Source: Vicinamibacterales bacterium (lineage in GTDB: Bacteria > Acidobacteriota > Vicinamibacteria > Vicinamibacterales > CAVVIG01). From it: DNA of 64,000 nucleotides. Below are positions 1 through 44,481 of this stretch, piece after piece. Both the position numbers and the translations under genes were made by a program. Positions within the stretch are counted from its first letter, which is position 1. Every line of letters begins with the position of its first letter. Where the stretch lies: assembly GCA_035534615.1 (NCBI GenBank), contig DATLRO010000082.1:65458-129457 (forward strand), in the 5' to 3' direction. Below the pieces are notes generated by a model. That model made no database searches. It saw nothing but the letters and a program-made list of their open reading frames with translations, and was not told the origin of the DNA.

Positions 1-2954
1 ACCACGTCTTCCAGGTTGGTGAGCCAGTCGTTCAACTTGCTGGGATAGTTCATCATCAACTGCTTGGGCGCCCGCGCCTTGTACTGGAACAGCGCCACCG
101 CGACAGCCCCGGCCTTGTCGTCCAGCCGCTTTGCCGCCGCTGCGACGTCCGCCTGCGCCGAATCGCCGGTGAGGCGCCGCTGCAGCGCCGTCAGCTGGCC
201 CCGCAGGTCCTGGATCTGATTGAACGTGACGTGATCCTCGATGATCGCCTGATGGATCTTCATCATCAGCGCGAACTGCTTCGCCAGATCCGCGGGGGCC
301 GCCTGGACGCGCGGGTCGAGCTCGAGCGTGAGCGGACGGGTATACGTCCGCCCCGCCACCGTGAGCCGGACCTGGTAGCGCCCCGGGACGACCTCGGGCG
401 TGATGGGGCTGCCCTGTTCGAACACCGGCCCGCCCACCACGCTGAGGGCCGGCGGCGACGGATAGCGCAGGTTCCAGACCAGGCGGTGCATGCCCGGCTG
501 CGCCGACAGCGCGCCGGTCCGGCTCGAGAACGTGCGGATGGTGTGCCCCTGCGCGTCGAGAATCGCCAGGTCGACGTCGCCGGCCGGCGCCGACTTCAGC
601 ACGTAATCGATGATCGCGCCGTCCGGCGGGTTCGCCCCGGTGTCGGTCCCCGGCCGTCCGCTGCCGGCGCGCCCGCTCATCCGGTACGCCGTCTCCGGCT
701 GGTAGAGATACGCCTCGGCCGCCGCGACGGTGGCGTCGATCTGCCGGAGCGGCGTGATGTCATCCAGAATCCAGAAGCCGCGGCCGTGGGTCGCCACGAC
801 GAGGTCGTTGTCCTGGACGGCGAAGTCGCGCACGGAGACGGTCGGCAGATTGAGCTGCAGCGACTGCCAGTGATTGCCATCGTCGAACGAGACGTCGGCG
901 CCGGTCTCGGTGCCGGCGAACAGCAGCCCCTTGCGCACCGGATCCTCACGCACGACGTGGACGTAGCCGGGCGCCGCCAGGCCGTTCGTGATGGCGGTCC
1001 AGGTGTGCCCGTAGTCGTAGGTGCGGAAGATGTACGGCGTGAAATCGCCCAGCCGCTTGCCGTTGACCGCCGCGTACGCCGTACCGGGATCGAACGGCGA
1101 CGCCTCGATCAGGCTGACCTTCGCCCACTTGGGGAGGGCCGGCGGCGTGACGTCGTGCCACGTCTTGCCGCCGTCGCGCGTCAGCTGAATCAGGCCATCG
1201 TCGGTGCCGACCCAGATCTCGCCCTTCGCGACCGGCGAGGGCGCAATCGTGTAGATAACGTCGTAGATTTCCGCGCCGACGTTGTCCTTCGTGATCGGAC
1301 CGCCCGACGGCCCCTGCTTCGTCTTGTCGTTGCGCGTCAGATCCGGGCTGATGGCGTGCCAGCTCATCCCGTGGTCGGCCGTCTCGAGCAGCACCTGCGA
1401 GCCGGCGTACATCACGTGCGGATCCTGCGGCGAAAAGACGACCGGCGACGTCCAGCTGAAGCGGTACTTCATCCGATCGGCGCCGTAGCCTTCGGTGTCG
1501 TCCGGCCACGGCGTGATGTCCTGCATCTGGCCGTTGCGATGATCGTAGCGGGTCAGATCGCCGAAGTACGAGCCGGCATACACGATCTGCGGATCGGTCG
1601 GATCGGGGACGACGTAGCCGCTCTCCCCGCCGCCGACGTCGTACCAGTTGCGCAGGCTGATGGACCCGGTGTCGCTCCGGCTCTCGATCGCCGCCGTGCC
1701 GCGATCCTGCTGGGCCCCGTAGAGGTAGAACGGGAAGCGGTGATCCACTGCCACATGGTAGAACTGCCCGGTCGGCTCGTTCGACTCCGTGCTCCACGTC
1801 CGGGCCCCGTTCACCGTGACCGTGGCGCCGCCGTCATTGCCTTCGATCATCCGCCGCGGATCGATCGGGTTGATCCAGAGCGCGTGATTGTCGACGTGCG
1901 GCTCGCGCAGGACGGTGAACGTCTCACCGCCGTCGGTCGACCGCTGGAGCAGGAAGTTGAGGACGTACACCGTGTTCGGGTCCTTCGGATCGGCGTACAC
2001 CTTGAAGTAGTACCAGGGACGCTGCCGGAGGTGCTGGTCGGCGTTGATCAGCGCCCAGCGCCGCCCGCCGTCGTCCGACCGGAAGAGCCCGCCGTGTTTG
2101 GCGTTGACCAGCGCGAAGACCCGGTCGCCGTCGGCGCCCGACACCGACACCGAGATCCGGCCGAGGATCCCGGTCGGCAGGCCGTGGCCCTCCAGCTGCT
2201 GCCAGGTGACCCCGCCGTCGTTCGACCGGTAGAGCCCGCTGCCCGGCCCGCCGTTCTCCAGACTCCACGGCGTGCGGTAGACCTGCCACAGCGAGGCGTA
2301 CATGATGTTCCAGTTGTGCGGGTCGACGCTGAGATCGATCGCCCCCGTCCGGTCGTCCTTGTAGAGCACCTTCGTCCACGTGCGGCCGCCGTTGGTCGTC
2401 CGGAACACCCCCCGCTCCGCGTTCCGGTCGTACATGTGGCCAAGCGCCGCCACCACGACCACATCGGGATCGTGCGGATCGATGAGGATGCCGGCGATGT
2501 GCTGGGTGTCGTCGAGCCCCACGTGCTGCCAGGTCCGGCCGCCGTCGACCGACTTGTACACGCCGTCGCCGAACGAGATGTCGGTACGGGGGTCCGGTTC
2601 GCCGGTACCGACGTACACGACGTTCGGATTGGACGGTGCCACCGCGATCGCCCCGATCGACGCCACCGGCTGGTGCTGGAAGAGCGCCTGCCAGGTATTG
2701 CCGTCGTCGGTCGTCTTCCAGACGCCGCCATCGACCGCGCCGAAATAGAAGACGTCAGGCTTGCTGGGCACACCCGCCACCGCCTCGACGCGCCCCCCCT
2801 CGAACGGGCCGACCATGCGCCACCGCATGCCGGCATAGAGATCGGGGGAATAGGCCGGCGCGGCCGCCGCCAGGCCGATCGCGCCCAGCGCGACCGCCAG
2901 GCCCAGGCTGGTCGACAGGCGAACGACGAATCGTCTCAAGGGGGTGGTCGTCAT
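1..2954 (-). CDS. Sortilin/VPS10-like BNR (Asp-box) repeat beta-propeller protein, exported; partial (3' end lies beyond the left edge)
   Basis: Not in the ORF track because no stop lies in the window. Hand translation of the minus strand from ATG 2954..2952 (GAGGA 5 nt upstream) gives [105 protein letters not shown]..., open to position 1. It is collinear with and clearly paralogous to the 31369..34545 protein. The 231..3806 + ORF is its antisense shadow. Confidence 0.85.
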   Translation of the reverse strand, partial: MTTTPLRRFVVRLSTSLGLAVALGAIGLAAAAPAYSPDLYAGMRWRMVGPFEGGRVEAVAGVPSKPDVFYFGAVDGGVWKTTDDGNTWQALFQHQPVASIGAIAVAPSNPNVVYVGTGEPDPRTDISFGDGVYKSVDGGRTWQHVGLDDTQHIAGILIDPHDPDVVVVAALGHMYDRNAERGVFRTTNGGRTWTKVLYKDDRTGAIDLSVDPHNWNIMYASLWQVYRTPWSLENGGPGSGLYRSNDGGVTWQQLEGHGLPTGILGRISVSVSGADGDRVFALVNAKHGGLFRSDDGGRRWALINADQHLRQRPWYYFKVYADPKDPNTVYVLNFLLQRSTDGGETFTVLREPHVDNHALWINPIDPRRMIEGNDGGATVTVNGARTWSTESNEPTGQFYHVAVDHRFPFYLYGAQQDRGTAAIESRSDTGSISLRNWYDVGGGESGYVVPDPTDPQIVYAGSYFGDLTRYDHRNGQMQDITPWPDDTEGYGADRMKYRFSWTSPVVFSPQDPHVMYAGSQVLLETADHGMSWHAISPDLTRNDKTKQGPSGGPITKDNVGAEIYDVIYTIAPSPVAKGEIWVGTDDGLIQLTRDGGKTWHDVTPPALPKWAKVSLIEASPFDPGTAYAAVNGKRLGDFTPYIFRTYDYGHTWTAITNGLAAPGYVHVVREDPVRKGLLFAGTETGADVSFDDGNHWQSLQLNLPTVSVRDFAVQDNDLVVATHGRGFWILDDITPLRQIDATVAAAEAYLYQPETAYRMSGRAGSGRPGTDTGANPPDGAIIDYVLKSAPAGDVDLAILDAQGHTIRTFSSRTGALSAQPGMHRLVWNLRYPSPPALSVVGGPVFEQGSPITPEVVPGRYQVRLTVAGRTYTRPLTLELDPRVQAAPADLAKQFALMMKIHQAIIEDHVTFNQIQDLRGQLTALQRRLTGDSAQADVAAAAKRLDDKAGAVAVALFQYKARAPKQLMMNYPSKLNDWLTNLEDV

Positions 2955-3107
2955 CGTATCCTCGTCGGCCGCGGCGTCGTGCGGGGATCCCGGGGGGACC
3001 AGAGCGCGCCGTCACGAACGAGCAGCAAGATGGGAGCGTCATGGGTGACCGGGCATTCGCGGGTGTCACCCCCTGTCGGGGCCGCACGCAGCCGCGCGTA
3101 CGGGTCC

Positions 3108-4924: not shown

Positions 4925-5869
4925 ATGCGTCTTCTTTTCTGCGGCGACATCTTCACCGAAGCGCGGCAGGTGCTGCAGAGCCGACTCCCTGCCGACGAGA
5001 TGGTGGTCTGCCCGCGCGACGCCGTCCGCGAATCGCTGGGCGGCGTCGACGTGGTCATTCCCATGATGACACCGATCGGCACCGACGTGATGGATGCCGG
5101 CCGGTTCCGGCTCATCCACCAGTTCGGCGTCGGGCTCGAGGGGGTGGATCTCGAGGCCGCGCGGGCGCGCGGCATCTGGGTCGCCAACGTGCCGTCGGCC
5201 GACACCGGCAACGCCGACTCCGTGGCCGAGCACGCGCTGCTGCTCATGCTGGCGGTCCTGCGGCGGCTGCCGGAGGCGCAGGCGAACATCCGGGCCGGGC
5301 GGCTCGGCAGCCCGCTGGGCCTGACGCTCGCCGGCCGGACGGTCTGCCTCTTCGGCCTCGGCGCGATCGCCACGGCGCTGGCCCGGCGGCTGCGGGCGTT
5401 CGACGTCCGTCTCCTCGGCATCAGCCGGCGCCTCGATCCCGCCCGGACGAAGGCGCTCGGCCTGGACGCCTGCTACGCGCCGGCCGACCGCGACGCGGCG
5501 CTCGCCCGGACCGACATCCTCGTGCTCTGCCTGCCGGTCACCGTGGAGACGCGCGGTCTCGTCGACGCCGCCGCGCTCGCGGCCCTGCCGCGCGGGGCCT
5601 GCCTGATCAATATCGCGCGCGGGCCGCTCGTGGATTACGCGGCGCTGTGCGCGGCGCTGTCGAGCGGCCATCTGGGCGGCGCCGGCCTCGACGTCTTCTG
5701 GCAGGAGCCGATCGCGGCGGACGATCGGCTGCTGTCGCTGCCGAATGTCGTCGCGACGCCGCACGTGGCCGGCGTGACCGACCGCTCGTACGCCGGGATC
5801 GCCCGGACGATCGCCGCCAACGTCGAGCGCCTCCGGCGGGGGGAACCGCCGCTGAACCGGGCCGCCTGA
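4925..5869 (+). CDS. D-isomer-specific 2-hydroxyacid dehydrogenase family, NAD-binding
   Basis: Internal ATG (residue 111 of track ORF 4595..5869) begins MRLLFCGDIF.... It has the GLGAIATALARRL Rossmann motif, ARGPLVD, and TPHVAG with the catalytic His. The upstream 110 codons are Arg/Pro-rich and overlap the divergent gene. Confidence 0.85.
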   Translation: MRLLFCGDIFTEARQVLQSRLPADEMVVCPRDAVRESLGGVDVVIPMMTPIGTDVMDAGRFRLIHQFGVGLEGVDLEAARARGIWVANVPSADTGNADSVAEHALLLMLAVLRRLPEAQANIRAGRLGSPLGLTLAGRTVCLFGLGAIATALARRLRAFDVRLLGISRRLDPARTKALGLDACYAPADRDAALARTDILVLCLPVTVETRGLVDAAALAALPRGACLINIARGPLVDYAALCAALSSGHLGGAGLDVFWQEPIAADDRLLSLPNVVATPHVAGVTDRSYAGIARTIAANVERLRRGEPPLNRAA

Positions 5870-8642: not shown

Positions 8643-8930
8643 TCACGCCTCGAAATCCACCGACACGATGTGCGAACAGATCGCCACGCCGCCCTGCGCC
8701 ACCGGCACGTGACGGGGGTCGACGGCGTAGGCGTCGAGCGCCCGCCGGTCCAGGAATCGCACGACCAGCCCGGTGTCGTACGACCGGCTGGTGTGCACCT
8801 GGTCGGCGCCGACCTGCAGATCGACGACGCCGGCGAGGCCGGCGAGCGACGCGAGGGCGCGCCGATGCTCCGCGCGCGCCGCCTCACCGACCTCCGGCTT
8901 GTACTTGAACGCGACCAGGTGAATGAGCAT
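8643..8930 (-). CDS. Dabb (stress-responsive alpha/beta-barrel) domain protein
   Basis: 95 aa beginning MLIHLVAFKYKPE...VDLQVGADQ...YDTGLVVRF, a typical Dabb pattern. It lies between the M28 peptidase and the PAS kinase on the same strand with short gaps, so an operon is possible. Confidence 0.75.
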   Translation of the reverse strand: MLIHLVAFKYKPEVGEAARAEHRRALASLAGLAGVVDLQVGADQVHTSRSYDTGLVVRFLDRRALDAYAVDPRHVPVAQGGVAICSHIVSVDFEA

Positions 8931-8967: not shown

Positions 8968-10461
8968 TCAGTGCCGGGCCGCCTGCGCCGCCGGCGGCAG
9001 CGGGATCCTGCCGTCGCGCATCGCGGCGTCGTAGGCGAACGCCGCGAGCACGATGGCCGATTCCTTCAGGCCGGCCTCGCTCACCCGCTCATCGGTGTCC
9101 ATGTTGGTGTGATGGATCCGGGTGTCGTAGTCCGTATAGTCCCGAATCGTATTGAAGCCGGCCATCCCGGCGTGGAGGAAGCTGAGGTGATCGGTCGCCC
9201 CGATCCCCTGCATCACGTTGTGGCGGGCGCCGAGATCGCGGAACGGCGCGAGCCAGGCGTCGAAGATCGGCTTGGCGGCCGCGTCCTGCTCCATATAGAA
9301 GCCGTAGACCGGTCCGGTCCCCGCATCGGTGTTGAAATAGACGTCGAACCGGTCGCGCGCGGCCCGGTTCTTCGTCCCGGCCAGGTACTGCTCGACGAAA
9401 TGGCGCGACCCCAGCAGCCCCTGCTCTTCGCCGCTCCACAGGCCGACGCGGATCGTCCGGCGCGGCCGGGCCCCGACCGCCTTGAGAATCCGCATCGCCT
9501 CCATCACCTCGGCGGCGCCGTCCGCGTTGTCGGCCGAGCCGGTGGCGCTGTGCCACGAGTCGAGATGCGCGCCGAGCATGACGACCTGGTCCTTCAGCGC
9601 CGGGTCGGTCCCGGGCAGATCCGCGAGCACGTTGAACGTGTCGGGGTCGGCGGTGTAGTAGCGCCCCTGCACGTCGACGCGCAGCTTGACCGGCATCTTC
9701 CGCTGCAGCATCCGCAGAATCAGGTTGTACTGCTCGCCCGCCATGACGATGCTGGGGACGGCATCGGCGCCCTCGTCCCGGCCCATGACGAACACCGTGC
9801 CATCGTCGCCGGGGCTCGGCTCGAGCACCGCGCCGACGCCCACTTGGTGCAGGGCGTGAATGAACGCCTGCCCCGGCTTGCCGATCCGGGCCGGATCGAA
9901 CGGAAAGCGCGGCGCCGTGCCGGCGGTCGGGTCGGTCGACCGCGTCGGCTGCAGGCGATCCGCCGTGATGAACGTCGTCTGCATCGGCTGGCTGAGGACG
10001 ATGGCCCCCTTCAATTTCGCGCCCATGGCCAGCACGTCGGCCGCCGTCTTGTCGCCGAGATAGACCGGCGTGCCGACCAGCACCCCCGGCGTGGACGCCG
10101 ACCAGCCTTCGGCGTAGCCGAGCAGCGGCGTGTAGCGCGGCGCCACCATTTCCAGCGTCAGCTTCTGCAGCGTCCAGCCGCGGCCGAACCGCCAGGGTTC
10201 GAGCCGGGCGTCGGTCAGGCCGAAGCGCCGGAGCTCGTCGCGCGCCCAGGCCGACGCCGCTTTCTGCGCGGGCGATCCGGTCAGGCGTGGACCGAACTGC
10301 GTCGTGATCGTCTGGAAGATCGCCGCCACGTGCGAGTGCTCGAGGCCTTCGCTGCGGATCTTCGCCATCATCGCCATGTCGACCGCATCGTCCGACCGGA
10401 CCAGTCCGGTTCCCGCCACCACCAGCACGGCGACCGCCGCCAGCCATCGTGTTGCGTTCAC
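8968..10461 (-). CDS. M28 family metallopeptidase with PA domain, exported
   Basis: Trimmed to the GTG at residue 61 of the track ORF (VNATRWLAAVAVLVVAG... signal anchor), with GGAGGAG 7-8 nt upstream. It shows M28-like metal-ligand blocks (GAHLDSWH, DNADGAAEV, WSGEEQGLLGS, HTNMDT). Confidence 0.8.
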   Translation of the reverse strand: MNATRWLAAVAVLVVAGTGLVRSDDAVDMAMMAKIRSEGLEHSHVAAIFQTITTQFGPRLTGSPAQKAASAWARDELRRFGLTDARLEPWRFGRGWTLQKLTLEMVAPRYTPLLGYAEGWSASTPGVLVGTPVYLGDKTAADVLAMGAKLKGAIVLSQPMQTTFITADRLQPTRSTDPTAGTAPRFPFDPARIGKPGQAFIHALHQVGVGAVLEPSPGDDGTVFVMGRDEGADAVPSIVMAGEQYNLILRMLQRKMPVKLRVDVQGRYYTADPDTFNVLADLPGTDPALKDQVVMLGAHLDSWHSATGSADNADGAAEVMEAMRILKAVGARPRRTIRVGLWSGEEQGLLGSRHFVEQYLAGTKNRAARDRFDVYFNTDAGTGPVYGFYMEQDAAAKPIFDAWLAPFRDLGARHNVMQGIGATDHLSFLHAGMAGFNTIRDYTDYDTRIHHTNMDTDERVSEAGLKESAIVLAAFAYDAAMRDGRIPLPPAAQAARH

Positions 10462-10557
10462 AGGTGCGCTCCTCCTGCAGGAAGGTGTGGAATGCCGGGA
10501 CAGAGGATAGCACCAGATCCCCGGGCCGCGGCGGCCGGCGTCCGGGTCCCGTGCGGG

Positions 10558-10586
10558 TTGACAGCCGCGCAGCCGGCCGCTAGACT
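10558..10586 (+). promoter_or_regulatory. Sigma70-type promoter candidate for an orphan plus-strand transcript
   Basis: TTGACA (10558-10563), a 17-nt spacer, then TAGACT (10581-10586). Coordinates were verified against the frame of the overlapping track ORF 8968..10641. Confidence 0.5.
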
Positions 10587-10592
10587 CGGGCC

Positions 10593-10795
10593 TGCTCGCC
10601 GCGCACGGCACCGACCTCGCTGATCCCGCTCGCTCCCGCACGCCGCATGGTCTCCAGGACGATCTGTCCGTGTTGTTGCGCCTGTCATTGCAGGCGGGTG
10701 GGAGTGGTCTGACCGTGCGCGGCTGACAGCGTCTTCGCCATCATCAACTGGCGGGTTCAACCACGGCCGCTCGCCTCTGGAGCGGCCTTTTTTTT
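10593..10795 (+). ncRNA. Candidate ~200-nt small RNA / micro-ORF transcript bounded by a promoter and an intrinsic terminator
   Basis: The predicted TSS lies about 7 nt after the -10 box, and the 3' end is defined by the stem-loop plus T8. There is no plus-strand protein gene on either side. It contains a 21-codon Cys-rich ORF (10647-10712). I could not match it by eye to any known RNA family. Confidence 0.45.
10765..10795 (+). terminator. Canonical Rho-independent terminator
   Basis: GGCCGCTC (10765-10772), a 7-nt loop, GAGCGGCC (10780-10787), then TTTTTTTT (10788-10795). This is the only T run of this length I saw in the window. On the other strand there is no U tract after the stem, so it is unidirectional. 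Confidence 0.8.
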
Positions 10796-10980
10796 GGACC
10801 GGCGGCTGCCCGCCGGCCGCGGGAGTCTTCCTTGACCTCCATTCGTGCACAACGTCATCGCCAACGTGCCGGCCTCGGCCGGCGGCGGCGCGGCCGACTC
10901 TGAACGCGGCCCGCTCCCAGGCCGTGCCGCTGCTCGACGTGCGGCTGGACAAGGCGTGGACGGTCGGCCGCGTCCGGCGC

Positions 10981-12567
10981 TCACGCCTGCGGCGCCGGCT
11001 CGTGCGGCGTCGCGGCCGCCAGCGTCATGCCGATCGCGACGATCATGCAGGCCCAGGCGAACCAGTCGCCGATCCGGTCGTAGACCGTCACCACGTGCGC
11101 CGCCGGTACGGAGGCGGCGAGCAGCACGTCGGGGGCCGCGTCGCTGCGCCGCGCGGCCACGATGCGGCCGTACGGATCGCTGACCGTCAGGCGGCCCTGC
11201 CGGGCCGTGCGCACGACACCGAACCCGCCCTCGACGCCGCGCACGACCGCCATCCGCGCGCGCAGCCGGCCGTCGCGGACGAAGTCCGACGCCGGCACGA
11301 ACAGGAGGCCGACCCCCTTCGCCGCATACTCACGGCCGACGGACGGCACATCCAGGTCGCTGCCGATGGCGACGCCGGCCCGCCGCCCCTCGAACCCCCA
11401 CACCGCCGCCGAATACCCGCGCTGATAGCCGGACTCGACCCCTTCGAACAGATGCTGCTGGAGGTAGCTGATGGCCACCTGCCCGTCGGGCGTGATGACC
11501 AGCGCCACGTTCCGTTTCGGCGAAATCCCGATCTCGTTGACGCCGGCCACGACCCACACGTGGGCGCTCGCAGCCGCCCGCGCCAGGAGGTCCTGCGCCT
11601 CGGCCCGGTCGGCGGACGTCACGCCGACGAACTTCTCCGGCAGGACCACGACCTTCGCGCCGTCGGCCGCCAGCTGCCGGATGCGGCCGGCGTAGGCACG
11701 AATCACGGACAGCGCAACGGCCGCGCGCCCGGGGTGGTCGGCGTCGCGCACCGTCGCGTCGGTCGCGGCCAGACCGACGCGCACGCCCGGCGCGTCCAGC
11801 GGAAGCGACAGCCTGACCGCCCCGAGGCCGGCCGCGAGCGCGACGATGACGGCCGGCACGCCGGCCGCCACCAGAAAGTCGCGCGTCTCGCCGCGACGCA
11901 GCCAGGCGGTCGCGAGCCCCGACGCCACCAGCGACACGAGGAACGTCACGCCCCAGAGGCCGACCACCGACGCGATCTGCAGGATCGGCAGCACGCCGGC
12001 CTGCGTGTAGGCGACGCTCCCGAAGCTGCCGTCGGGTGACAGCGTCGCGACCAGATAATCGGCGGCCGCCGCCAGTACCGGGAACGCGAACAACCCGACG
12101 TACGTCGGCTGCCGGCGCCAGATGTAACGGGCGGCCAGCACGACCAGCGTGAAGACGACCGCCGGGATGAAGACCGCGCGCGCAATCACAAGGGGCGGCA
12201 GGAGGCCGTGATAGAGCTCCAGCCACGCCAGGCTGCCGAGCAGCGCGGCCGCAAATGCCGCGATCGCCGCCCGGCGCACGGAGGTCGAATACGCCACGAC
12301 GAGCACGGGGGCGGGGGCCAGCCAGGCCAGGATCCAGACGTCGTGGGCGCCGGTCGACAGGAACCAGGCAAGTGCCGAAGCGAGGACGCAGAGCAGGCCG
12401 ATGACGGTCTCGCGCGAACGGGTCGTGGGGCAGCCTCCCGGGGGATGAATGTACAGGGTACAACGGATGATGTGCGACGTGCGATGGACGCGATCGGCCG
12501 CGGCAGGGTTCCCGAGCCCCGGGCGCCGACGGGCCGGGCTGAAGCTCGGGGCCACAACAAAACCCAC
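10981..12567 (-). CDS. Membrane-anchored carbon-nitrogen hydrolase superfamily protein, apolipoprotein N-acyltransferase (Lnt)-like topology, with a non-canonical catalytic triad
   Basis: The N-terminal part has about 6 hydrophobic helices, followed by a CN-hydrolase domain (VVVLPEKF..., SYLQQHLFEG, GVAIGSDLDVP, LLFVPA). Glu is present, but the Lys and Cys positions read Gln and Gly. The start is uncertain, as no better in-frame start was seen near the first helix. Confidence 0.7.
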   Translation of the reverse strand: MGFVVAPSFSPARRRPGLGNPAAADRVHRTSHIIRCTLYIHPPGGCPTTRSRETVIGLLCVLASALAWFLSTGAHDVWILAWLAPAPVLVVAYSTSVRRAAIAAFAAALLGSLAWLELYHGLLPPLVIARAVFIPAVVFTLVVLAARYIWRRQPTYVGLFAFPVLAAAADYLVATLSPDGSFGSVAYTQAGVLPILQIASVVGLWGVTFLVSLVASGLATAWLRRGETRDFLVAAGVPAVIVALAAGLGAVRLSLPLDAPGVRVGLAATDATVRDADHPGRAAVALSVIRAYAGRIRQLAADGAKVVVLPEKFVGVTSADRAEAQDLLARAAASAHVWVVAGVNEIGISPKRNVALVITPDGQVAISYLQQHLFEGVESGYQRGYSAAVWGFEGRRAGVAIGSDLDVPSVGREYAAKGVGLLFVPASDFVRDGRLRARMAVVRGVEGGFGVVRTARQGRLTVSDPYGRIVAARRSDAAPDVLLAASVPAAHVVTVYDRIGDWFAWACMIVAIGMTLAAATPHEPAPQA

Positions 12568-20086: not shown

Positions 20087-21793
20087 TCAGAAGAGGAAGT
20101 AGCGCTGCGCCAGCGGCAGCACCTCGGCCGGCTCGCACGTCAACCGCTCCCCGTCCGCCCGCACTTCATAGGTCTCGGGGTCGACGTGCATGATCGGCAG
20201 CGCGTCGTTCAGCTTCATGTCGGTCTTCCGCAGGGTGCGGCAGCCGCGGACGGCCACCGCCGGCCGGTCGAGTCCGCGGAGCGCGCCGCCCGCGAGGCCG
20301 GCCTGCGACACGAAGTGCACGGCGATCCGGTTCAGGGCCCGCCCGGAGGCGCCGAACATCAGGCGGCCGAGCACGGGCTGCGGCGTCGGGATCGAGGCGT
20401 TGCCGTCGCCCATCGCGGCGCCGGCGATGAACCCGCCCTTGATCACCACCTCCGGCTTCACGCCGAAGAAGGCCGGTTTCCAGAGCACGAGGTCGGCCAT
20501 CTTGCCGACCTCCACCGAGCCGACGACGGCGCCGATGCCGTGCGCGATGGCGGGGTTGATCGTGTACTTCGCGATGTACCGGCGGACGCGCAGGTTATCG
20601 TGCCGCGCGGAGTCTCCGGCGAGCGGGCCCCGCTGTTTCTTCATCGCGTCCGCGGTCTGCCAGGTCCGGCAGATCACTTCGCCGATCCGTCCCATCGCCT
20701 GCGAGTCGGACGACATGATGCTGATCGCGCCCAGGTCGTGCAGGACGTCCTCCGCGGCAATCGTCTCGGCGCGGATCCGTGAATCCGCGAACGCGACGTC
20801 CTCGGGAATCGACGGCGACAGATGGTGACAGACCATCAGCATGTCGAGATGCTCGTCCATCGTGTTCCGCGTGAACGGCATCGTCGGATTCGTGGAGGAC
20901 GGGAGGACGTTCGGCTCGCCGCAGAGCCGGATGATGTCCGGCGCGTGGCCGCCGCCGGCCCCTTCCGTGTGGTACGTGTGGATCGTCCGGCCGGCAATCG
21001 CCGCGATGGTGTCCTCGACGAAGCCGCTTTCGTTGAGCGTGTCGGTGTGAATCGCCACCTGCACGTCGTACTCGTCCGCCACCCGCAGGCACTGGTCGAT
21101 GGCGGCCGGCGTCGTCCCCCAGTCCTCGTGCAGCTTCAGACCGAGCGCGCCCGCTTCGATCTGCTCCACCAGCGCGGCCGGCAGCGAGCTGTTGCCCTTC
21201 CCGAGGAATCCGAAGTTCAGCGGAAAGCCTTCGGCCGCCTCGTACATCCGCCGGATGTTCCATGGTCCCGGCGTGCAGGTCGTCGCCTTCGTGCCGGTCG
21301 CCGGCCCGGTGCCGCCGCCGATGAGCGTGGTCATGCCGGCGTGGAACGCCTCGGGAATCTGGTTCGGCGAGATGAAATGCACGTGCGCGTCGATGCCGCC
21401 GGCCGTCAGGATGTGCCCTTCCCCGGCCAGCACCTCGGTCGACGCCCCGATCTCCATGCCGGGCGTCACGTCGTCCATGATCCAGGGGTTGCCGGCCTTG
21501 CCGATGCCGGCGATGAGGCCGTCGCGGACGGCGACGTCCGCCTTGTAGATCCCCGTGTAATCGATGATGAGCGCGCTGGTGATCACCAGATCGGGCGATC
21601 CGGTCGCACGCGCGGCGCCCGGCATCTGACCCATCCCGTCGCGAATCACCTTGCCGCCGCCGAACTTCGCTTCATCGCCGTACGACGCGCAGTCCCGCTC
21701 GACCTCGACGATGAGATCGGTGTCGGCCAGGCGCACCCGGTCGCCCGTCGTGGGCCCGTAGTGGTCGGCGTAGGTGCGGCGATCAATCTTCAT
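20087..21793 (-). CDS. ureC: Urease alpha subunit
   Basis: 568 aa with canonical urease alpha motifs ([29 protein letters not shown]). Confidence 0.97.
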
Positions 21794-22577: not shown

Positions 22578-25436
22578 TCAGAAATCGAACCGGACGCTGA
22601 TCTCCGCCGTGCGGGGATTGAGCGCGCCGTTGATCTCGTTGAACAGCGAGCCGTTGCCCAGGTTGAAGTTCGTCACGGCGCTCGAGTTGAACAGGTTGAA
22701 CACGTCGAACATCGCGGTGAACTTGCCGAACGGCAGCCGCACCGCCTTGTCCACCCGCAGCCCCATCAGCGCGACCGTGTCCGAATAGTTGCTGTTCAGG
22801 TTGGCCATGAAGAAGCGCTGGATCCCCGAGTTGGGCAGCCGCACCGTGATGATCCGCGCCCACGGCCAGCCGCTCTGCACCTGCAGGTTGACGCCCAGCC
22901 CGATCTGGTACGGGAACTCGTAGCGGCCCGACAGGTGCGCCTGCCAGCTCGTCGTCTTCTGCCGGACCGGGACGGTCGGGTACACGTTCTGGAAATAGCC
23001 GACCGTGATCGGATCGACCGCCTGCGGATTGTTGTTCGACGACGCCGCCCTCAGCTCGTTCCGCCACTCGTAGTCGAAGTCGGAGTCGACGAACAGGTTC
23101 TTCTTGAACCGCTTGTTGAAGGCGAACTCGATCGTGTCGTAGTTCTCGGCGCCGTAGTCGACGCTCGCCGGCATCGTGGCAATCACGTTGTTGACCACCC
23201 CGCTCAGCGTGCTCGGGATGTCGTACACCGTGAACGTCTGCGTCCCCGAGACGCCGGTCCCGTAGTTCTGGATCGGGATCGTGACGGTGACCGGGACGGT
23301 GAACTGCCCCTCCCGCGAGATGTTGTACGTCGCGAACTGATCGCGCACCATCTTCCGGACGTAGGCCACGCGGAACGACGACTCGCCCCAGAACTGCCGT
23401 TCGTACGAGAGATCGACCTCGTCCGTGTACGGCGTCTTGATGTTCGGATCGATCGTCGTGCTCACGCCGCCGCTCGACGCCAGCAGCGTCCCGAGATCCT
23501 GCGGGCCGTGATAGAGGCCGTCGCCGGCCGTGTTCAGGAACACGTAGTCGCGCGTCTGCGTGCCGCCCGGGTCGACGCCGGTGAACGCGTCGGCGAAGTT
23601 GAAGTAGAAGCGGCCGTAGAACGCCTTGATGACCTGCCGGCCGTTCCCGCCCGGATCCCACGCGAGCCCGAGCCGCGGCATCACGTCGTTCCGCACGAGC
23701 AGCGTCTGGCCGGGCACCGTCCGGGCGGCGAAGATGTCGCTCAGCACCGGATTGGTCTTGGCCGCGTCGTAGTACGGCCGCTGCCGGTCGTAGCGGACGC
23801 CGAGCGTCGCCGTCACCTTGCTGGACGGCGTCCAGCGATCCTGCAGATACAGCGAGTACCGCCGGTCATGGTCGTTCGGGCCGGTCCAGGTGCTGCCGAA
23901 CTGCGACGGGGTCCCGACGTCCGTCAGCCGGATCTCGCTCGGCTGTCCGTTGGCGTCCAGGTACAGAATCGGTCCCGACGTCCCGGTCCGATCGAAGGTC
24001 GTGCCGAAGTCCTGCCATTCGAACCCGGCCTTGAGATCGTGGCTGCCGATCCTGCTCGGCAGGAAGTAGGTCGCCCGCGCGTAGAACTGCGGCTTCCGGA
24101 TGCCGGTGTCGAACGGCCCTCCGCCGGTGCCCCAGCCCGCCCCGCTGTTCAACCCGGTCACCAGATCCTGGCGCGGCGGATTGGTCAGATAGTTCACGTT
24201 CGGCTGCTCCGGGAAGTCGAACGCCGACAAGGCATAGCTGATCTCGGAGAACAGCCGGTTGTTCCAGACGCGCTGGTAGCGGCCGCTGTAGTTCCAGCTC
24301 GGGCTGAACTCCGCCAGCGCCGATTCCTTCGGCACCGTCGCCGACAGCCCGCGCAGCGGCTCCCCCTTCCAGTTCCACTCGTAGAACCCGATGAGCGTGT
24401 CCTTCTCGGTCGGCTTGTAGGTTTCCTTGTTCGTGAACGCCTTCATGATCGTCAGGTTCGTCGCGATGTTCTGCGGCACGCCCGATTCGGCCACGTTGAT
24501 CCGGAACTGGTTGTACGCCGTGTAGAACCACAGCTTGTTCTTCTTCAGGTACCCGCCGAGATCCACGTGCCCCTCCCAGTACTCGAGGTTGGGCTGCCCG
24601 GTGAATCCGCGGGCCTGGCCTGCCGCGGTGACGTTGTTGCCGACGAAGCTGCCCGGTTCGTACGTGAAGTTCTCGAGCCCGTGGAACGAGTTGCCCCCGC
24701 TCTTCACCGTCGAGATGATCGCCGCCCCCGGCGTGTCGATCGTCACGTCCCCGCCCGCCGCCGTCACCGACAGCTGATCCTGGGCGTAGTAGTCCATGTA
24801 GTTCATGTCGCCGCTGGCGCCGGACGTGGTGTCGATCCCGTCCATGTACTCCTGCGCCTGCCCGCGGATGCCGAACGCCTCGTAGCCGGTCTGCTGCATC
24901 TTGTGGCTGCCGCCGACGTCATAGCCCTGCATCCGGATGCCGGGCGTCTGGGCCAGCGCGCCCCACAGGTCGGTCGACGTCGGCACGCTGATCAGCTTGG
25001 CCGTGTTCAGCACGTTGCCCACCTGCGTCGACTGGACGTCGACGATCGGCGACTCCGCCGTCACGGTGACGTTCTCCTTCACCGAGGCGAGCGGCATCGC
25101 CATGTCGATCGTCAGCGTCTGATCCACCGCCAGCACGATGCCCGTGCGCGCCGTTGTCCGGAAGCCCGAGAGAACGAACGTCAACGTGTACGTCCCGGCC
25201 GGCAACGCCGGGAACCGGTACGCGCCGTTCGCCTCGCTCACCGAGATCTGCGTGCCAATCAACGACGGTGACGTCGCCGTCACCGTGACGCCAGGCAGCA
25301 CCGCGCCTTGCGCGTCCTTCACCGTGCCGGTCAACACACCGGCGCCCGTGATCTGGGCGCCGGCCGGCGCGGCCAGCAGCCACACGGCTGCCAGCACGAG
25401 CCCGCTCCACCCCACCCGTCGTTTCGTCGATCCCAT
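22578..25436 (-). CDS. TonB-dependent receptor-like outer membrane protein with N-terminal carboxypeptidase-regulatory-like domain
   Basis: 952 aa with a signal peptide (LVLAAVWLLAAPAGAQ), a CarboxypepD_reg-like start (GTVKDAQGAVLPGVTVTATS...ANGAYRFPALPAGTYTLTF), a long beta-rich body and a terminal aromatic residue (...ISVRFDF). GAGGAGGA RBS. Confidence 0.85.
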   Translation of the reverse strand: MGSTKRRVGWSGLVLAAVWLLAAPAGAQITGAGVLTGTVKDAQGAVLPGVTVTATSPSLIGTQISVSEANGAYRFPALPAGTYTLTFVLSGFRTTARTGIVLAVDQTLTIDMAMPLASVKENVTVTAESPIVDVQSTQVGNVLNTAKLISVPTSTDLWGALAQTPGIRMQGYDVGGSHKMQQTGYEAFGIRGQAQEYMDGIDTTSGASGDMNYMDYYAQDQLSVTAAGGDVTIDTPGAAIISTVKSGGNSFHGLENFTYEPGSFVGNNVTAAGQARGFTGQPNLEYWEGHVDLGGYLKKNKLWFYTAYNQFRINVAESGVPQNIATNLTIMKAFTNKETYKPTEKDTLIGFYEWNWKGEPLRGLSATVPKESALAEFSPSWNYSGRYQRVWNNRLFSEISYALSAFDFPEQPNVNYLTNPPRQDLVTGLNSGAGWGTGGGPFDTGIRKPQFYARATYFLPSRIGSHDLKAGFEWQDFGTTFDRTGTSGPILYLDANGQPSEIRLTDVGTPSQFGSTWTGPNDHDRRYSLYLQDRWTPSSKVTATLGVRYDRQRPYYDAAKTNPVLSDIFAARTVPGQTLLVRNDVMPRLGLAWDPGGNGRQVIKAFYGRFYFNFADAFTGVDPGGTQTRDYVFLNTAGDGLYHGPQDLGTLLASSGGVSTTIDPNIKTPYTDEVDLSYERQFWGESSFRVAYVRKMVRDQFATYNISREGQFTVPVTVTIPIQNYGTGVSGTQTFTVYDIPSTLSGVVNNVIATMPASVDYGAENYDTIEFAFNKRFKKNLFVDSDFDYEWRNELRAASSNNNPQAVDPITVGYFQNVYPTVPVRQKTTSWQAHLSGRYEFPYQIGLGVNLQVQSGWPWARIITVRLPNSGIQRFFMANLNSNYSDTVALMGLRVDKAVRLPFGKFTAMFDVFNLFNSSAVTNFNLGNGSLFNEINGALNPRTAEISVRFDF

Positions 25437-25680
25437 CCTGCGTCCTCCTCTGGACTCTCCCGTGTGCCGATCGATTCGGCCCGATTACCTCACCACAACA
25501 TGAACAACCACCCGATCGCCGACCGGGCGGAAACGACGACAGGCAGGAAAGGGGTCGCCGCGCACCCCCGTCGTCGCAGCAAGCCACATACCAGCCGCCC
25601 CCCTTGGCCAGGGGGAGAGTCATCTTACGCATGCCCAATGCGTTACGCAACACTCCAGAGCGTCCCTCGGAACGACGGTC

Positions 25681-37975: not shown

Positions 37976-40273
37976 ATGGCTCGCACCGCTTCCGCGTCAT
38001 CGACGCGCCCCGGCTCCCGGCGCCGTGCCGCCCCCCGGCGGCCACCCGAGCCAGCGCAGCCCGGGCGGCCGCCGGCACGCGACCGTCTGGTCTGGATGCT
38101 CGTGGTGTTCGCCGTCGCGCTCGGCATCCGCGTCCTGCACGTCTGGCTGATCCACCGCGAGCCGTTCTTCACGCTGAGACTCGGCGACGCGGACGTCTAT
38201 GACGCCTGGGCCCGGCGGATCGCGGCCGGCGACTGGGTCGGGCACCAGGTCTTCTATCAGGCCCCGCTGTATCCGTACTTCCTGGCGGTCATCTACCTGA
38301 CGCTCGGGCCGGCCGTCCTGACGGTCCGGCTGGTGCAGGCGGTCCTCAGCGCGGCGGCGTGCGCGCTGCTGGCGGGCGCCGGCTGGCGCCTGTTCTCGAA
38401 GCAGGCCGGCCTCGTCGCCGGATTCATGCTGGCGCTCTATCCGCCGTCGATCTTCCTCGACACGCTCCTTCAGAAATCGGCCCTGGATCTGTTCTTCCTG
38501 TGCCTGGCGCTGTGGCTGCTGAGCCGTCTGCTGGCCGCGCCCGGGCGCGCCGTCGCGTGGTGGCTCGGCGTCTCGCTCGGCGGCCTGATGCTCGTCCGCG
38601 AGAACACGCTGATCCTGGTCGCGCCGCTGCTGGTCTGGTTCGCGCTCCAGCGCGCATGGTCGCCCCGCCGCCGCCTCGCGCTCGCCGGCCTGTTCGTCGC
38701 CGGCCTCGGCGTCGTGCTGGTGCCGGTCGCCATCCGCAACGGCATGGTGGGCGGCGAATTCTACGTGACGACGGCGCAGTTCGGTCCGAACTTCTACATC
38801 GGCAACAATCCGCACGCGGACGGCACGTACAAGTCCCTGCGGCCGATGCGGGGCCGCGCGGCGGTCGAGCGGAAGGACGCGACCACCCTGGCCGAACGGG
38901 CGCTCGGGCGCACGCTGACGCCGGCGGAAGTCTCCGGGTACTACACGGGCCAGGCGCTCGATTTCATCCGCACGCAGCCCGGACGGTGGGTGCAGCTGCT
39001 CCTCCGGAAGTTCGCGCTCACGTGGAACACGACCGAGATCGCCGACACCGAAGATCAGTACACCTACGCCGGGCTGTCGTGGCCGCTGCGGCTGGAGGCG
39101 ATCTGGAACCTGGGCGTCCTGGCGCCGCTCGCCTGCCTCGGGCTCTGGAGCACGCGCGACGACTGGCGGCGGCTGTGGCTCCTGCACCTCATGCTCGCCG
39201 CGTACGTCGCCAGCGTCGTCCTGTTCTACGTGTTCGCCCGCTACCGGTATCCGATGGTGCCGTTCCTCGTCCTGTTCGCGGCGGCCGGCGTCACCCGCCT
39301 GCGCGCGTTCGTGCGGGAGCGCGGCCGCGGCGACATCGCCGGGTGCGCGGCGGCGACCGTCGCCGTCGCGGTCTTCTGCAACTGGCCGATGATCCCGCGC
39401 AACAGACTCGAAGCGGTCACGCACTACAACTTCGGTGTCGGCTTCGAGCGGCGGCACCAGCCGGCACTCGCGGTTCAGGAGTACCACGCCGCCCTCGCGC
39501 TCGACCCGGCGCTGGTGGTGGCGCACAACGATCTCGGGCTGCTGCTCGGCCGCCAGGGGCATCTGCGCCAGGCGGCCCGGGAGCTCGAGACGGTGGTCCG
39601 CCTCGATCCGACGTACGCCACGGCGCAGAACAATCTCGGCGTCGTGCTCGGCCAGCAGGGCGACCTCCGCGACGCCCTCGCGCACTTCGAGGCCGCGATC
39701 CGGATCGACCCGCGCAATGCGGAGGCCCACAACAACCTGGGGCAGATGCTCGCCGCGCAGGGGCGGATAACCGACGCGCGGGCGGAGTACGAGCAGGCCG
39801 CCCGCCTCGATCCCCGGTACGCCGAGGCGCGGCGGAACCTCGCGCGCCTGGACGCTGCCCAGGGCCGGTTCGCGGAGGCGGCCGCGGAATACCGGCAGGC
39901 GCTGGCGCTGGCCCCGGACGATGCCGCGACCCACGCCGCGCTGGCGCAGGTGCTGGTGCGCACGGGCGATGTCGACCAGGCGGCGGCCGAATTCCAGCGG
40001 GCAGTTGCGCTCCGCCCGGACGATCCGGCCATCCTCAACGACTTCGGGATCCTGCTGGCGGGCGCCGGCCGGCTGGACGCGGCGGCGGCGCAGTTCCAGC
40101 GGGCGATCGTGGTGGCGCCCGACGGCGCCGAGGCGCACAACAACCTCGGGATCGTCCTCGCCCAGCAGGGGCACACGGCCGAAGCGGCCGCGGAGTTCCG
40201 GCAGGCGATCAGCCTCGATCCGGGTTACGACGAAGCCCGGCGGAACCTGGCGCGCCTGCACGTGCGCCCCTGA
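37976..40273 (+). CDS. Membrane glycosyltransferase (GT39/ArnT-like, PMT_2) fused to a C-terminal TPR repeat array
   Basis: 765 aa with about 10 hydrophobic helices in the first 460 aa (DADVYDAWARRIAAGDW near the N-terminus), followed by about 8 TPR units (AHNNLG..., AQNNLG..., AEAHNNLG...). Confidence 0.85.
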   Translation: MARTASASSTRPGSRRRAAPRRPPEPAQPGRPPARDRLVWMLVVFAVALGIRVLHVWLIHREPFFTLRLGDADVYDAWARRIAAGDWVGHQVFYQAPLYPYFLAVIYLTLGPAVLTVRLVQAVLSAAACALLAGAGWRLFSKQAGLVAGFMLALYPPSIFLDTLLQKSALDLFFLCLALWLLSRLLAAPGRAVAWWLGVSLGGLMLVRENTLILVAPLLVWFALQRAWSPRRRLALAGLFVAGLGVVLVPVAIRNGMVGGEFYVTTAQFGPNFYIGNNPHADGTYKSLRPMRGRAAVERKDATTLAERALGRTLTPAEVSGYYTGQALDFIRTQPGRWVQLLLRKFALTWNTTEIADTEDQYTYAGLSWPLRLEAIWNLGVLAPLACLGLWSTRDDWRRLWLLHLMLAAYVASVVLFYVFARYRYPMVPFLVLFAAAGVTRLRAFVRERGRGDIAGCAAATVAVAVFCNWPMIPRNRLEAVTHYNFGVGFERRHQPALAVQEYHAALALDPALVVAHNDLGLLLGRQGHLRQAARELETVVRLDPTYATAQNNLGVVLGQQGDLRDALAHFEAAIRIDPRNAEAHNNLGQMLAAQGRITDARAEYEQAARLDPRYAEARRNLARLDAAQGRFAEAAAEYRQALALAPDDAATHAALAQVLVRTGDVDQAAAEFQRAVALRPDDPAILNDFGILLAGAGRLDAAAAQFQRAIVVAPDGAEAHNNLGIVLAQQGHTAEAAAEFRQAISLDPGYDEARRNLARLHVRP

Positions 40274-40287
40274 GCGTCCGCAGCGCC

Positions 40288-40524
40288 GTCAACACGCTGC
40301 GCTGCACGGACGAGGAGATCGTGCGCGTCGCGCGCGCGGCGTTCGCCGAGGCGCGCCGGCGCCGCCGCCACATGGTCGAGGAGCGGGTCGCCGACGAACA
40401 GGGGCTGGATGCCGCGTTCGGGATCGACAAGGGAGCGCGGGCACGGCTGCTGACCGGCCTGGATGCCATCGCGCGGACGCTGGCGCAGGCAGAGGCGATC
40501 GACACCTTCGAGCGCGGGCACGAA
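40288..40524 (+). pseudogene. Remnant of the C-terminal ~75 codons of a LeuD/aconitase-swivel-type gene
   Basis: This frame of track ORF 38359..40992 reads VNTLRCTDEEIVRVARAAFAE...LDAAFGIDKGARARLLTGLDAIARTLAQAEAIDTFE. It aligns without gaps to my recollection of the E. coli LeuD C-terminus (...[12 protein letters not shown]...[34 protein letters not shown]), with identical spacing from the DxE to the GLD. There is no N-terminal part, no convincing start and no stop before 40992. Confidence 0.45.
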
Positions 40525-40548
40525 GGCGCACTCACCGGCGGGGCGGGC

Positions 40549-40956
40549 TCAGGCGGGCACGAGGGCGTCCAGTTCCGGCAGCAGCACGATCCCTTCCTGA
40601 TCATGCGCGGCCGTGTGCGCCACCAGCGCCCGGCAGGTTGCATGCGACCGGTTCCTCACCAGGTGCGGCATCCCGGCCGGCACGTACATGTAATCGCCGG
40701 CCCGCGCCTCCAGCCGCTGCGCCAGCCGGACGCCGAAATACATCTCGGCCTCCCCCTCGATGACATAGACGGCCGTCTCAACGCCGTGATGGAGATGTGT
40801 CTTCGCGCGGGCGCCCGGCGGCCGGACGGCGAGGTTCAGACAGATCCCGGTCGTGCCGGCCGTCTCGCTCGTCAGCCCCGCCAGATACGTCAGCCCCTGC
40901 CGGCCGACATAGGCGCCCCCCGTGCGCACGACGGCGCAGGTCGCTTCGGTAGCCAT
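40549..40956 (-). CDS. Cupin domain protein
   Basis: 135 aa: HLHHGVETAVYVIEGEAEMYFG...GDYMYVPAGMPHLVRN, a two-motif cupin signature. Confidence 0.75.
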   Translation of the reverse strand: MATEATCAVVRTGGAYVGRQGLTYLAGLTSETAGTTGICLNLAVRPPGARAKTHLHHGVETAVYVIEGEAEMYFGVRLAQRLEARAGDYMYVPAGMPHLVRNRSHATCRALVAHTAAHDQEGIVLLPELDALVPA

Positions 40957-41853: not shown

Positions 41854-41880
41854 GAGCGTAGGCTCCTCACGTTCCCGGCG

Positions 41881-44463: not shown

Positions 44464-44481
44464 CCGGGGGTCGTCTTCGGT

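Follow-up and report, generated by a model that had tools for sequence, protein, structure and literature searches.

We analysed a 64,000-nt stretch of DNA from a Vicinamibacterales bacterium (contig DATLRO010000082.1, positions 65,458 to 129,457; hereafter the window), in which the interval 10558-10795 carries a plus-strand unit of about 200 nt between a near-consensus promoter and a terminator. We propose that this interval is the relic leader of a deleted gene for a TonB-dependent receptor (TBDR), and that this leader looks like a ribosome-mediated, cysteine-responsive transcription attenuator; to this joint statement we would give a probability of roughly 0.58. Its two halves deserve different degrees of confidence. 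That the interval is an orphaned TBDR leader appears to us highly probable. That the leader works as a cysteine attenuator draws on modelled folding, and here we lean toward the proposal by a small measure. An earlier sequence-only reading of the window, which had drawn attention to the unit, took it for an independent small RNA (sRNA) gene or an mRNA for a micro-protein. The first of these suggestions is not supported by the comparison with homologues, which are TBDR leaders without exception (4/4), while the second gained substance from a cysteine-rich open reading frame (ORF) within the unit. This ORF, and the alternative pairing of the terminator arm discussed below, go beyond what that reading had described.

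Linkage of the leader to a receptor gene

Searching loci with the interval, and then with a profile, yielded five distinct copies including that of the window (Table 1), the other four all coming from other Vicinamibacterales (Acidobacteriota). In each of these four a gene lies on the same strand, 75-110 nt downstream of the element, and encodes a protein of ~950 aa with an N-terminal signal sequence, a CarboxypepD_reg domain and an outer-membrane barrel; the latter two features identify the product as a TBDR. Three of the four homologues (L002, L018 and L039) were reached through synteny of the orthologues of the neighbouring M28 peptidase gene, which in these loci is divergent from the element, as it is in the window. 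In the metagenome-assembled genome REEB315, the element adjoins the TBDR orthologue (L040), on a contig separate from that of the M28 gene (L001), and this M28 gene, 78% identical to that of the window, is directly preceded by the Lnt gene without the element. It is thus the TBDR gene, not the M28 gene, that the element goes with. The closest relatives by M28 identity, L001 (78%) and L017 (77%), both have the Lnt gene followed directly by the M28 gene on the same strand, with no element, and their Lnt-M28 spacer measures ~115-130 nt (L001, 4533-5885/6001; L017, 2-1084/1212) against 519 nt in the window, where the spacer holds the leader and the remnants of a receptor gene. Upstream of the TBDR relatives L041-L044, at 63-67% identity, the element is lacking; the element family is narrow.

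Conservation of this kind, which the sequence-only reading had named as a check of its proposal, extends to the promoter and the terminator stem in all four homologues. It also bears on the notion that promoter-like and terminator-like strings simply happened to fall together within a long spacer. Consensus matches alone prove nothing, with ~1 promoter-like match expected per 20 kb; however, both signals and the sequence between them are kept in four other genomes, where the proteins on either side share only 67-78% identity, and a T8 tract has an expectation of 0.06 per window. Conservation effectively refutes chance co-occurrence, to which we attach a negligible probability. Because the flanking proteins have diverged to this extent, the conservation of the core is to be regarded as nucleotide-level.

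What is left of the receptor gene in the window came to light by blastn of 10796-10990 against the loci, which gave two matches of ~81-82% nucleotide identity in the 3' part of the L040 TBDR gene. Both scraps are closer to L040 than to the window's own TBDR paralogue (22578-25436), and TBDR residues 1-745, 764-879 and 903-952 are gone from the window. With only scraps left of the receptor gene beside an intact promoter, leader and terminator, the window unit is best described as an orphaned leader. The word "orphan" in the sequence-only reading is thus literally apt, as nothing other than TBDR scraps follows the terminator, but it fails in the sense of a free-standing gene, since the unit is the relic of a cis-regulatory leader. 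The degree of identity of the scraps is consistent with a fairly recent deletion of the TBDR gene, and the intact leader may not have decayed yet.

With the TBDR gene gone, the unit can only give a ~203-nt RNA ending at the T8 tract, possibly together with a 21-aa poly-Cys peptide, and any read-through would run antisense into lnt. Where the window has T8 after the stem, the four gene-linked copies all have GTTCTGCTGTACGG, and both ATGs used in other copies are already mutated in the window. In addition, a perfect 9-bp long-range pairing of GCCGCGCAC (10598-10606) with GUGCGCGGC (10715-10723) on the plus strand encloses the whole ORF in the window copy only; the other copies have a local hairpin at the site equivalent to 10715-10723. 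Selection against antisense transcription might have shaped the T8 tract and the closing helix, as might a new sRNA role. One might then suppose that the ~200-nt RNA is itself the functional product, either of an independent gene for a trans-acting sRNA or of an attenuator-derived sRNA exapted after loss of the receptor gene. Such a scenario would be in keeping with the lack of a downstream gene in the window, the intact promoter and core, a terminator that beats that of any homologue (T8 versus GUUCUGCUG), the closing of the molecule by the window-specific 9-bp pairing, and the ability of terminated attenuator RNAs to act in trans, for example rnTrpL of Sinorhizobium (PMC6614838). However, in all four homologues the element stands before one and the same TBDR gene, as its 5' leader, and it travels together with this gene; neither the window nor ~330 kb of related loci yielded a second copy; cis pairing fully accounts for the conserved core; and the identity of the scraps to L040 is consistent with a fairly recent deletion, after which the intact leader may simply have had too little time to decay. 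We consider an sRNA gene rather unlikely and favour the reading of the window copy as a relic.

The cysteine-rich frame and the alternative pairings

For the working of the leader in its original setting we propose the following scenario. The signals, the homology, the linkage to the TBDR gene, the remnants of this gene, the pattern of the Cys-rich ORF and the alternative complementarity are shown by the sequences; that the leader is transcribed, that its ORF is translated, that it responds to cysteine and that the hairpin terminates transcription in the gene-linked copies is what we infer from them. The promoter (TTGACA/TAnAnT) would start a leader of ~200 nt encoding a peptide of 16-38 codons, 4-7 of them for Cys. 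On a leader free of ribosomes, the upstream C-rich segment would pair with the G-rich core GGCGGGUGGGAG, the hairpin GGCCGCUC/GAGCGGCC would form and transcription would stop. The same hairpin would form, with the same result, if a ribosome that has reached the stop codon, inside or just after the core, covers the core. If charged tRNA-Cys is scarce, on the other hand, the ribosome would perhaps stall on the Cys run and separate the core from its upstream partner; the freed core might then zip up with GGUU..ACCAC..CCGCUCGC, including the terminator 5' arm, so that no terminator forms and the TBDR gene is transcribed. The biological logic, which is speculative, would be that cysteine or a sulfur source is imported when tRNA-Cys is uncharged.

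What suggests that the frame is translated is the way it varies. An ATG-initiated ORF in the same frame is present in every copy, its length (16-38 codons) and Cys content (4-7 codons) differing among them. Across the five copies, length differences within the Cys run amount to 3 or 6 nt and are thus in frame, and the Cys codons vary at the third position only (TGT/TGC), one TGG excepted. A 2-nt indel in the hairpin loop shifts the frame downstream of the run, so that nucleotides identical across the shift are read either as RRVGVV followed by a stop or as QAGGSGLT.. followed by a stop, and both continuation frames are closed by TGA in 5/5 copies, within 0 or 3-5 codons. The invariant UGA in GGUCUGACC ends one frame; for the other, a TGA does so 3-5 codons further on, where the sequence cannot otherwise be aligned. 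As stops make up 1.3% per codon, the chance is ~0.1 per sequence. In six real genes of the window, Cys accounts for 0.4% of codons and TGT is rare (TGT:TGC 1:14), compared to 21-39% Cys in the leader ORFs (29% in the window) with a TGT:TGC ratio of 12:15 (44% TGT). We take this pattern to point to selection on translating Cys codons rather than on the peptide. A reading of the core as Trp codons (GGG TGG GAG TGG) was rejected, because it needs a frame that lacks a start codon and extends through the terminator.

One may still ask whether the peptide itself is the functional product, either as a metal-binding poly-Cys micropeptide or as a metal-sensing nascent chain of the CruR kind tied to metal uptake by the TBDR. 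The density of 4-7 Cys in 16-21 residues would suit this role, a copper-sensing upstream ORF (uORF) before a TonB-dependent transporter gene is known in CruR with bfrG (PMC9426467), and the neighbouring M28 product belongs to a metallo-hydrolase family (NCBI name M20/M25/M40 family metallo-hydrolase; Pfam M28/M20). On the other side, the sequence after the Cys run is not conserved and is read in two different frames. A peptide of 16-38 aa would still be enclosed by the ribosome exit tunnel at the stop codon, which makes sensing by an emerged domain unlikely. Nor does the peptide have a signal peptide, the CXXC-45-RAPP architecture or the 145-aa length of CruR/DUF2946 (PMC9426467). All in all, a functional micropeptide seems to us quite improbable.

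Pairing of the RNA provides the second line of evidence for an attenuator. Common to the five copies are a UG-rich stretch running into the hairpin H1, a middle hairpin of variable sequence, and a terminator composed of CCACGGCCGCTCGC and GAGCGGCC. The predicted antiterminator is an 18-bp interrupted helix of 5'-GGCGGGUGG-GA-GUGGU-CU-GACC with GGUU-CA-ACCAC-GG-CCGCUCGCC, which uses the terminator 5' arm; its predicted energy in the five copies is -33 to -44 kcal/mol versus -18 to -23 kcal/mol for the terminator. Standard pairs fill 95.6% of the cells of this helix across the five copies, falling to 34-53% if the partner strand is slid by 1-3 columns. Five variable pairs of the antiterminator change on one side and stay paired, among them the sole substitution in the core (U.G to C-G, L039). 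An equivalent of the pairing between the C-rich segment and the core is predicted in 4/5 copies despite their differing sequences.

To model the effect of the ribosome, the nascent RNA up to the terminator loop was folded with everything up to 15 nt past the A-site codon removed. With the ribosome on early to middle Cys codons (Cys1-5 of 6 in the window), the predicted probability of pairing between the terminator 5' arm and the core is ~0.75 or more in 5/5 copies; it is at most 0.05 in 4/5 copies when there is no ribosome, and 0.00 in 5/5 copies when the ribosome is at the stop codon. For the full-length window RNA at equilibrium, the predicted probability of the terminator is 0.01 with the ribosome stalled at Cys2-4, and 1.00 without a ribosome, at Cys5-6 and at the stop codon. 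In the other copies the longer terminator wins at equilibrium; for these, the order of folding would decide the outcome, as it does in classical attenuators. In L002 and L018 the freed terminator 3' arm can pair with the downstream GUUCUGCUGUACGGCUCCUCACC, which would explain the conservation of the latter.

The alternative between terminator and antiterminator is the best-supported part of the proposal and needs no ribosome in itself. Let us suppose, then, that the TBDR leader is a riboswitch-like switch for a protein, a metabolite or a metal instead of a sensor of tRNA-Cys charging, with the Cys-rich ORF incidental. The poor conservation of the ORF start signals, the frequency of off-frame Cys runs in the UG-rich sequence here, and a regulated gene that is a transporter, as is common for riboswitches, would all be compatible with this. 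Yet there was no Rfam match even at E up to 10, and the copies share no conserved ligand pocket built of several helices; outside the two pairing strands, loops and middle hairpin vary freely. Furthermore, the confinement of 3-nt indels to the Cys run, the variation of Cys codons at the third position only and the closure of both frames by TGA are hard to explain in an untranslated sequence. We think a riboswitch-like switch unlikely.

Several observations weigh against a cysteine attenuator and explain our restrained confidence in this half of the proposal. The signals for starting translation are poorly kept among the copies: a GAGGG stands before the ATG in L002 and L018 only, and the window ATG has no Shine-Dalgarno (SD) sequence, besides the loss there of the two ATGs used elsewhere. 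An in-frame ATG 8-10 nt after the -10 box, which would lengthen the ORF to 33-38 codons, is found in L002, L039 and L040 and is lacking in the window and L018; its presence in 3/5 copies makes a leaderless start possible. Off-frame UG-rich Cys runs (at least 4 in 9 codons) number 18 in the window, with 5.8 expected. Because the Cys run is itself paired with an upstream segment, constraint at the RNA level could account for part of its conservation. In L039 the antiterminator is predicted even without a ribosome. Among the five copies known, the antiterminator offers no two-sided compensatory base-pair change, and the structures therefore rest on conserved complementarity; of the covariation check suggested with the sequence-only reading, the pairing held up and the compensation did not appear. 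The four TBDR-linked copies have the hairpin followed by GUUCUGCUGUAC, a poor U tract, and intrinsic termination in them is uncertain. Lastly, the regulated gene is a transporter gene and not a cysteine gene, leaving the sensed amino acid without an evident tie to it, and neither Pfam, NCBIfam nor the neighbouring genes gave any hint of the TBDR substrate. The TBDR contains 0 Cys residues, which fits the attenuator model without being specific to it.

The scan for Cys codons also brought up, as repeated off-frame "PRRCCS", a tandem array at 41924-42117 (to 42188), with an 18-nt unit CCCCAGACGATGTTGTTC in 10.8 copies at 92% matches and also a 36-nt period. In L040, directly after the leader hairpin (2940-2975, plus strand), stands a second hairpin GGCCGCUCGUCAUCGGGCGGCC followed by GUUUUC, which looks like a partial duplicate of the terminator.

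We also considered whether the output could be translational, by a relay from the terminator 3' arm through the downstream segment and an anti-SD segment to the SD of the TBDR gene. This candidate was rejected because the SD shows no consistent ribosome-dependent change. The predicted unpaired probability of the SD is 0-0.20 in every state in L002 and L018, and 0.35-0.47 in the Cys-stalled states in L039, and in L040 it is highest, at 0.44, with the ribosome at the stop codon; for want of consistent unmasking across the copies, a translational output is not supported. An anti-SD-like segment does exist: in L002 (~5545-5625, minus strand), between the leader hairpin and the TBDR start, CCUCCGCG lies ~60 nt upstream of the SD CGCGGAGG, and L018 and L039 have equivalents, whereas L040 has none. 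Its pairing with the SD is predicted in L002 and L018 in every modelled state. From the modelling, this segment may be a separate translational block, constitutive or otherwise regulated.

Signals, surroundings and searches

Direct reading of 10300-11100 bore out every coordinate of the TTGACA-17-TAGACT promoter (10558-10586) given by the sequence-only reading, as well as its 8-bp GC stem, 7-nt loop and T8 tract (10765-10795). Promoter-like and terminator-like sites were scanned over positions 1-60000 of the window. The promoter, with 10/12 consensus matches, is the sole promoter-like site in 1-40000, and three weaker ones lie in 40001-60000. The leader hairpin is by far the best terminator-like site, and no other listed site in the scanned region precedes a T run, in agreement with the earlier remark that the other gene-end hairpins lack a U tract. 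The rarity claimed for the T run was likewise borne out, this being the only run of at least 7 T in 64 kb at 71% G+C, where shuffles give an expectation of 0.06. Both neighbouring genes are indeed on the minus strand, with the M28 start at 10461 and the Lnt-like stop at 10981, so that the unit belongs to neither, and, read on the minus strand, the stem runs out into GTGGTTGAACC, which contains no U run, as had been stated. The homologues keep TAnAnT at the -10 in 4/4 cases (TACAGT or TAGAGT) with a spacer of 18 nt, and the distance from promoter to core is equal across them. The predicted fold of a 204-nt RNA of the window has -95.2 kcal/mol (z = -3.1 versus shuffles). An independent Logan assembly of the same organism (SRR8554485, L038) is identical in sequence, loop and T8 included, so that the interval is not an assembly artefact.

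Table 1. Positions of the leader, its parts and neighbours in the window, and of the homologous copies with their predicted peptides
Sequence	Feature	Position	Strand	Basis or remark
Window	-35 hexamer, TTGACA	10558..10563	+	direct reading; invariant in 5/5 copies
Window	-10 hexamer, TAGACT, 17-nt spacer from the -35	10581..10586	+	direct reading and consensus scan
Window	leader transcript, predicted, ~203 nt	10593..10795	+	start placed 7 nt after the -10; end at the U tract
Window	C-rich segment UCCCGCUC, predicted to pair with the G-rich core without a ribosome (5' strand, anti-antiterminator)	10624..10631	+	minimum free energy structures
Window	short ORF, 21 codons and TGA, MVSRTICPCCCACHCRRVGVV then stop	10647..10712	+	homologous Cys-rich ORFs in all copies
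Window	six-Cys-codon run TGT CCG TGT TGT TGC GCC TGT CAT TGC, proposed sensor	10665..10691	+	
Window	hairpin H1, CGCCUG, 6-nt loop, CAGGCG	10679..10696	+	stem invariant; loop 4 or 6 nt and variable across copies
Window	core, 24 nt, CAGGCGGGTGGGAGTGGTCTGACC, predicted antiterminator 5' strand; the uORF stop codon lies within it	10691..10714	+	one substitution in five copies
Window	predicted antiterminator 3' strand GGUUCAACCAC-GGCCGCUCGCC, overlaps the terminator 5' arm	10754..10775	+	antiterminator -42 kcal/mol
Window	terminator hairpin, 8 bp, 7-nt loop, -18 kcal/mol	10765..10787	+	stem invariant in all copies
Window	terminator arms GGCCGCTC and GAGCGGCC, loop GCCTCTG	10765-10772 and 10780-10787	+	direct reading
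Window	T8 tract	10788..10795	+	window copy only; homologues carry GTTCTGCTGTAC
Window	TBDR remnant 1, VHNVIANVPASAGGGAAD	10845..10898	+	L040 receptor residues 746-763, 83% identity
Window	TBDR remnant 2, LNAARSQAVPLLDVRLDKAWTVG, different frame from remnant 1	10900..10968	+	L040 residues 880-902, 74% identity
Window	secreted M28 peptidase gene, divergent from the leader promoter	8968..10461	-	start 10461 preceded by GGAGGA
Window	Lnt-like gene, convergent with the leader	10981..12405	-	stop 10981
L002	copy of the element	5623-5860	-	peptide (..)MCMCLCCAWSQAGGSGLTA then stop
L018	copy of the element	158-395	-	peptide MCMCLCCACIQAGGSGLTSIT then stop
L039	copy of the element	1262-1515	-	peptide (..)MCMCLCCCACCIRRAGVV then stop
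L040	copy of the element	2718-2940	+	peptide (..)MCMCCCACMPRRVGVV then stop

Known RNAs were searched for in several ways. Rfam gave no match in the interval at gathering thresholds, 6S RNA and the Acido-type motifs included, and ARAGORN found no tRNA or tmRNA, so that the earlier judgement by eye that the unit is not SRP RNA, tmRNA, RNase P RNA or a tRNA stands. In a permissive Rfam search (to E 10) the best score was 19.8 bits against a cutoff of 49.5, only the terminator being aligned; weak matches to anti-hemB and to a toxic sRNA were discarded, as they too covered the terminator only. The leader has no sequence or covariance-model similarity to any Rfam leader. Scans with the exact 18-mer GGGTGGGAGTGGTCTGAC returned 1 viral and 17 metagenome matches, all of them chance or coding matches without flanking hairpins, and the pattern was in any case too strict, since L039 reads GGGCGGGAG. 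The only Rfam match of the window at gathering score is 5_ureB_sRNA (21348-21646, plus strand, 81.6 bits), antisense to the ORF 20087-21793 (minus strand) for the urease alpha subunit (Urease_alpha and Amidohydro_1); conservation of the urease coding sequence is the most likely source of this match, more so than an sRNA.

The window's own TBDR paralogue (22578-25436, minus strand) is 57% identical to the L002 receptor, and the element was not found upstream of it. Its upstream region (25437-25640, minus strand) has a TTGCGT-17-TAAGAT promoter-like site, a 35-codon ORF and, ~70 nt before the start, a 10-bp hairpin with UUGUUCAUGU after it (25530-25508). This paralogue leader shows no resemblance to the Cys leader and folds no better than shuffles do (z = 0.09). 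Judged by its M28 protein, the window belongs to the Vicinamibacterales (Acidobacteriota). Downstream of the M28 peptidase gene, the window has a 95-aa Dabb (stress-responsive alpha/beta barrel) gene (8643-8930, minus strand); a Dabb gene follows the M28 gene in all close relatives seen (L017, L018 and L038), in what looks like a conserved two-gene unit.

Significance and relation to known leaders

If the proposal is correct, gating of a TBDR gene by a cysteine attenuator implies that the receptor imports cysteine or a sulfur source, which would be a substrate clue for one of the uncharacterised TonB-dependent receptors that make up a very large family in acidobacteria. Attenuators with Cys codons have been described for mycobacterial sulfur genes and rhodobacterial cysS only, and our literature search turned up no such leader from Acidobacteria and none preceding a TBDR gene; the same logic would then operate in the poorly studied and largely uncultured Vicinamibacterales, coupling tRNA-Cys charging to outer-membrane uptake. 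The distribution of the attenuator appears narrow, and its mechanism is one that we infer from five sequences. The window copy offers a clear case from nature in which a regulatory leader has outlasted its deleted gene, and illustrates one route by which sRNA genes may arise. There is also a lesson for annotation: a perfect promoter and terminator pair without a gene can be a relic leader, and adjoining gene scraps give it away. In its most far-reaching form, the proposal would join two linked readings. By one, Acidobacteriota would here have their first leader-peptide attenuator for an amino acid (cysteine), and an outer-membrane TBDR would for the first time be under such control; by the other, the leader has outlived its gene and, its terminator sharpened to T8, would persist as a trans-acting sRNA and/or poly-Cys micropeptide like rnTrpL/peTrpL. 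That both hold at once we consider unlikely.

Leader-peptide transcription attenuators such as trpL and hisL of E. coli are textbook devices of amino-acid biosynthesis operons in Proteobacteria. The leader described here resembles them in the alternation of anti-antiterminator, antiterminator and terminator within a four-segment RNA, in a stop codon placed so that a ribosome which has finished translation would cover segment 2, and in a terminator hairpin preceding the regulated gene. Like them it has a short ORF in which codons for a single amino acid follow one another. The closest in logic is the uORFC-8-2 motif upstream of cysS in Rhodobacterales, which has two tandem Cys codons and a U-tract terminator (PMC8632094). 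The tandem Cys codons are in common with uORFC-8-2, although the present leader has 4-7 of them versus two (PMC8632094). Unlike uORFC-8-2 and the classical cases, it belongs to the phylum Acidobacteriota (Vicinamibacterales), its regulated gene is a TBDR gene and not an amino-acid or tRNA-synthetase gene, its U tract is weak in the gene-linked copies, and in the window the regulated gene is gone.

Cys-codon leaders have also been predicted for cys operons of Actinobacteria (PMC1262725). The mycobacterial polycysteine leaderless short ORFs have cysteine and sulfur genes as targets and act by a translational mechanism, and pausing at Cys codons has been proposed or shown to relieve attenuation there (Canestrari et al., 10.1101/834739). 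Poly-Cys short ORFs at the 5' end of the transcript in high-GC hosts are a likeness to the present case (10.1101/834739). The in-frame ATG close after the -10 box in 3/5 copies would permit a leaderless start, as in the mycobacterial ORFs; in the window and L018 no ATG lies near the start. However, the mycobacterial example frees the SD of the next gene, whereas here the SD of the TBDR gene shows no consistent unmasking and the proposed switch is a terminator-like hairpin.

With regard to the regulated gene, the nearest parallel is CruR (DUF2946) of Bordetella, a copper-responsive uORF upstream of the TonB-dependent transporter gene bfrG that exerts post-initiation control; its product is exported, has ~145 aa and a CXXC motif with a RAPP arrest motif 45 residues later, and involves Rho-dependent termination (PMC9426467). 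A Cys-containing upstream ORF controlling a downstream TonB-dependent transporter gene is thus the feature in common with our proposal. The defining features of CruR are lacking in the present leader, which has 16-38 codons, no RAPP and no signal peptide, and a hairpin terminator/antiterminator instead.

As to the fate of the window copy, a comparison is offered by rnTrpL of Sinorhizobium meliloti, an attenuator-derived sRNA before trpE(G) with shown trans targets (PMC6614838). There the leader still sits before trpE(G) and trans targets have been shown, whereas here the downstream gene is deleted and a trans role would be putative. Nevertheless, both are terminated leader RNAs with their own promoter and a small ORF, and the RNA of the window, like rnTrpL, would be released as a discrete small RNA.

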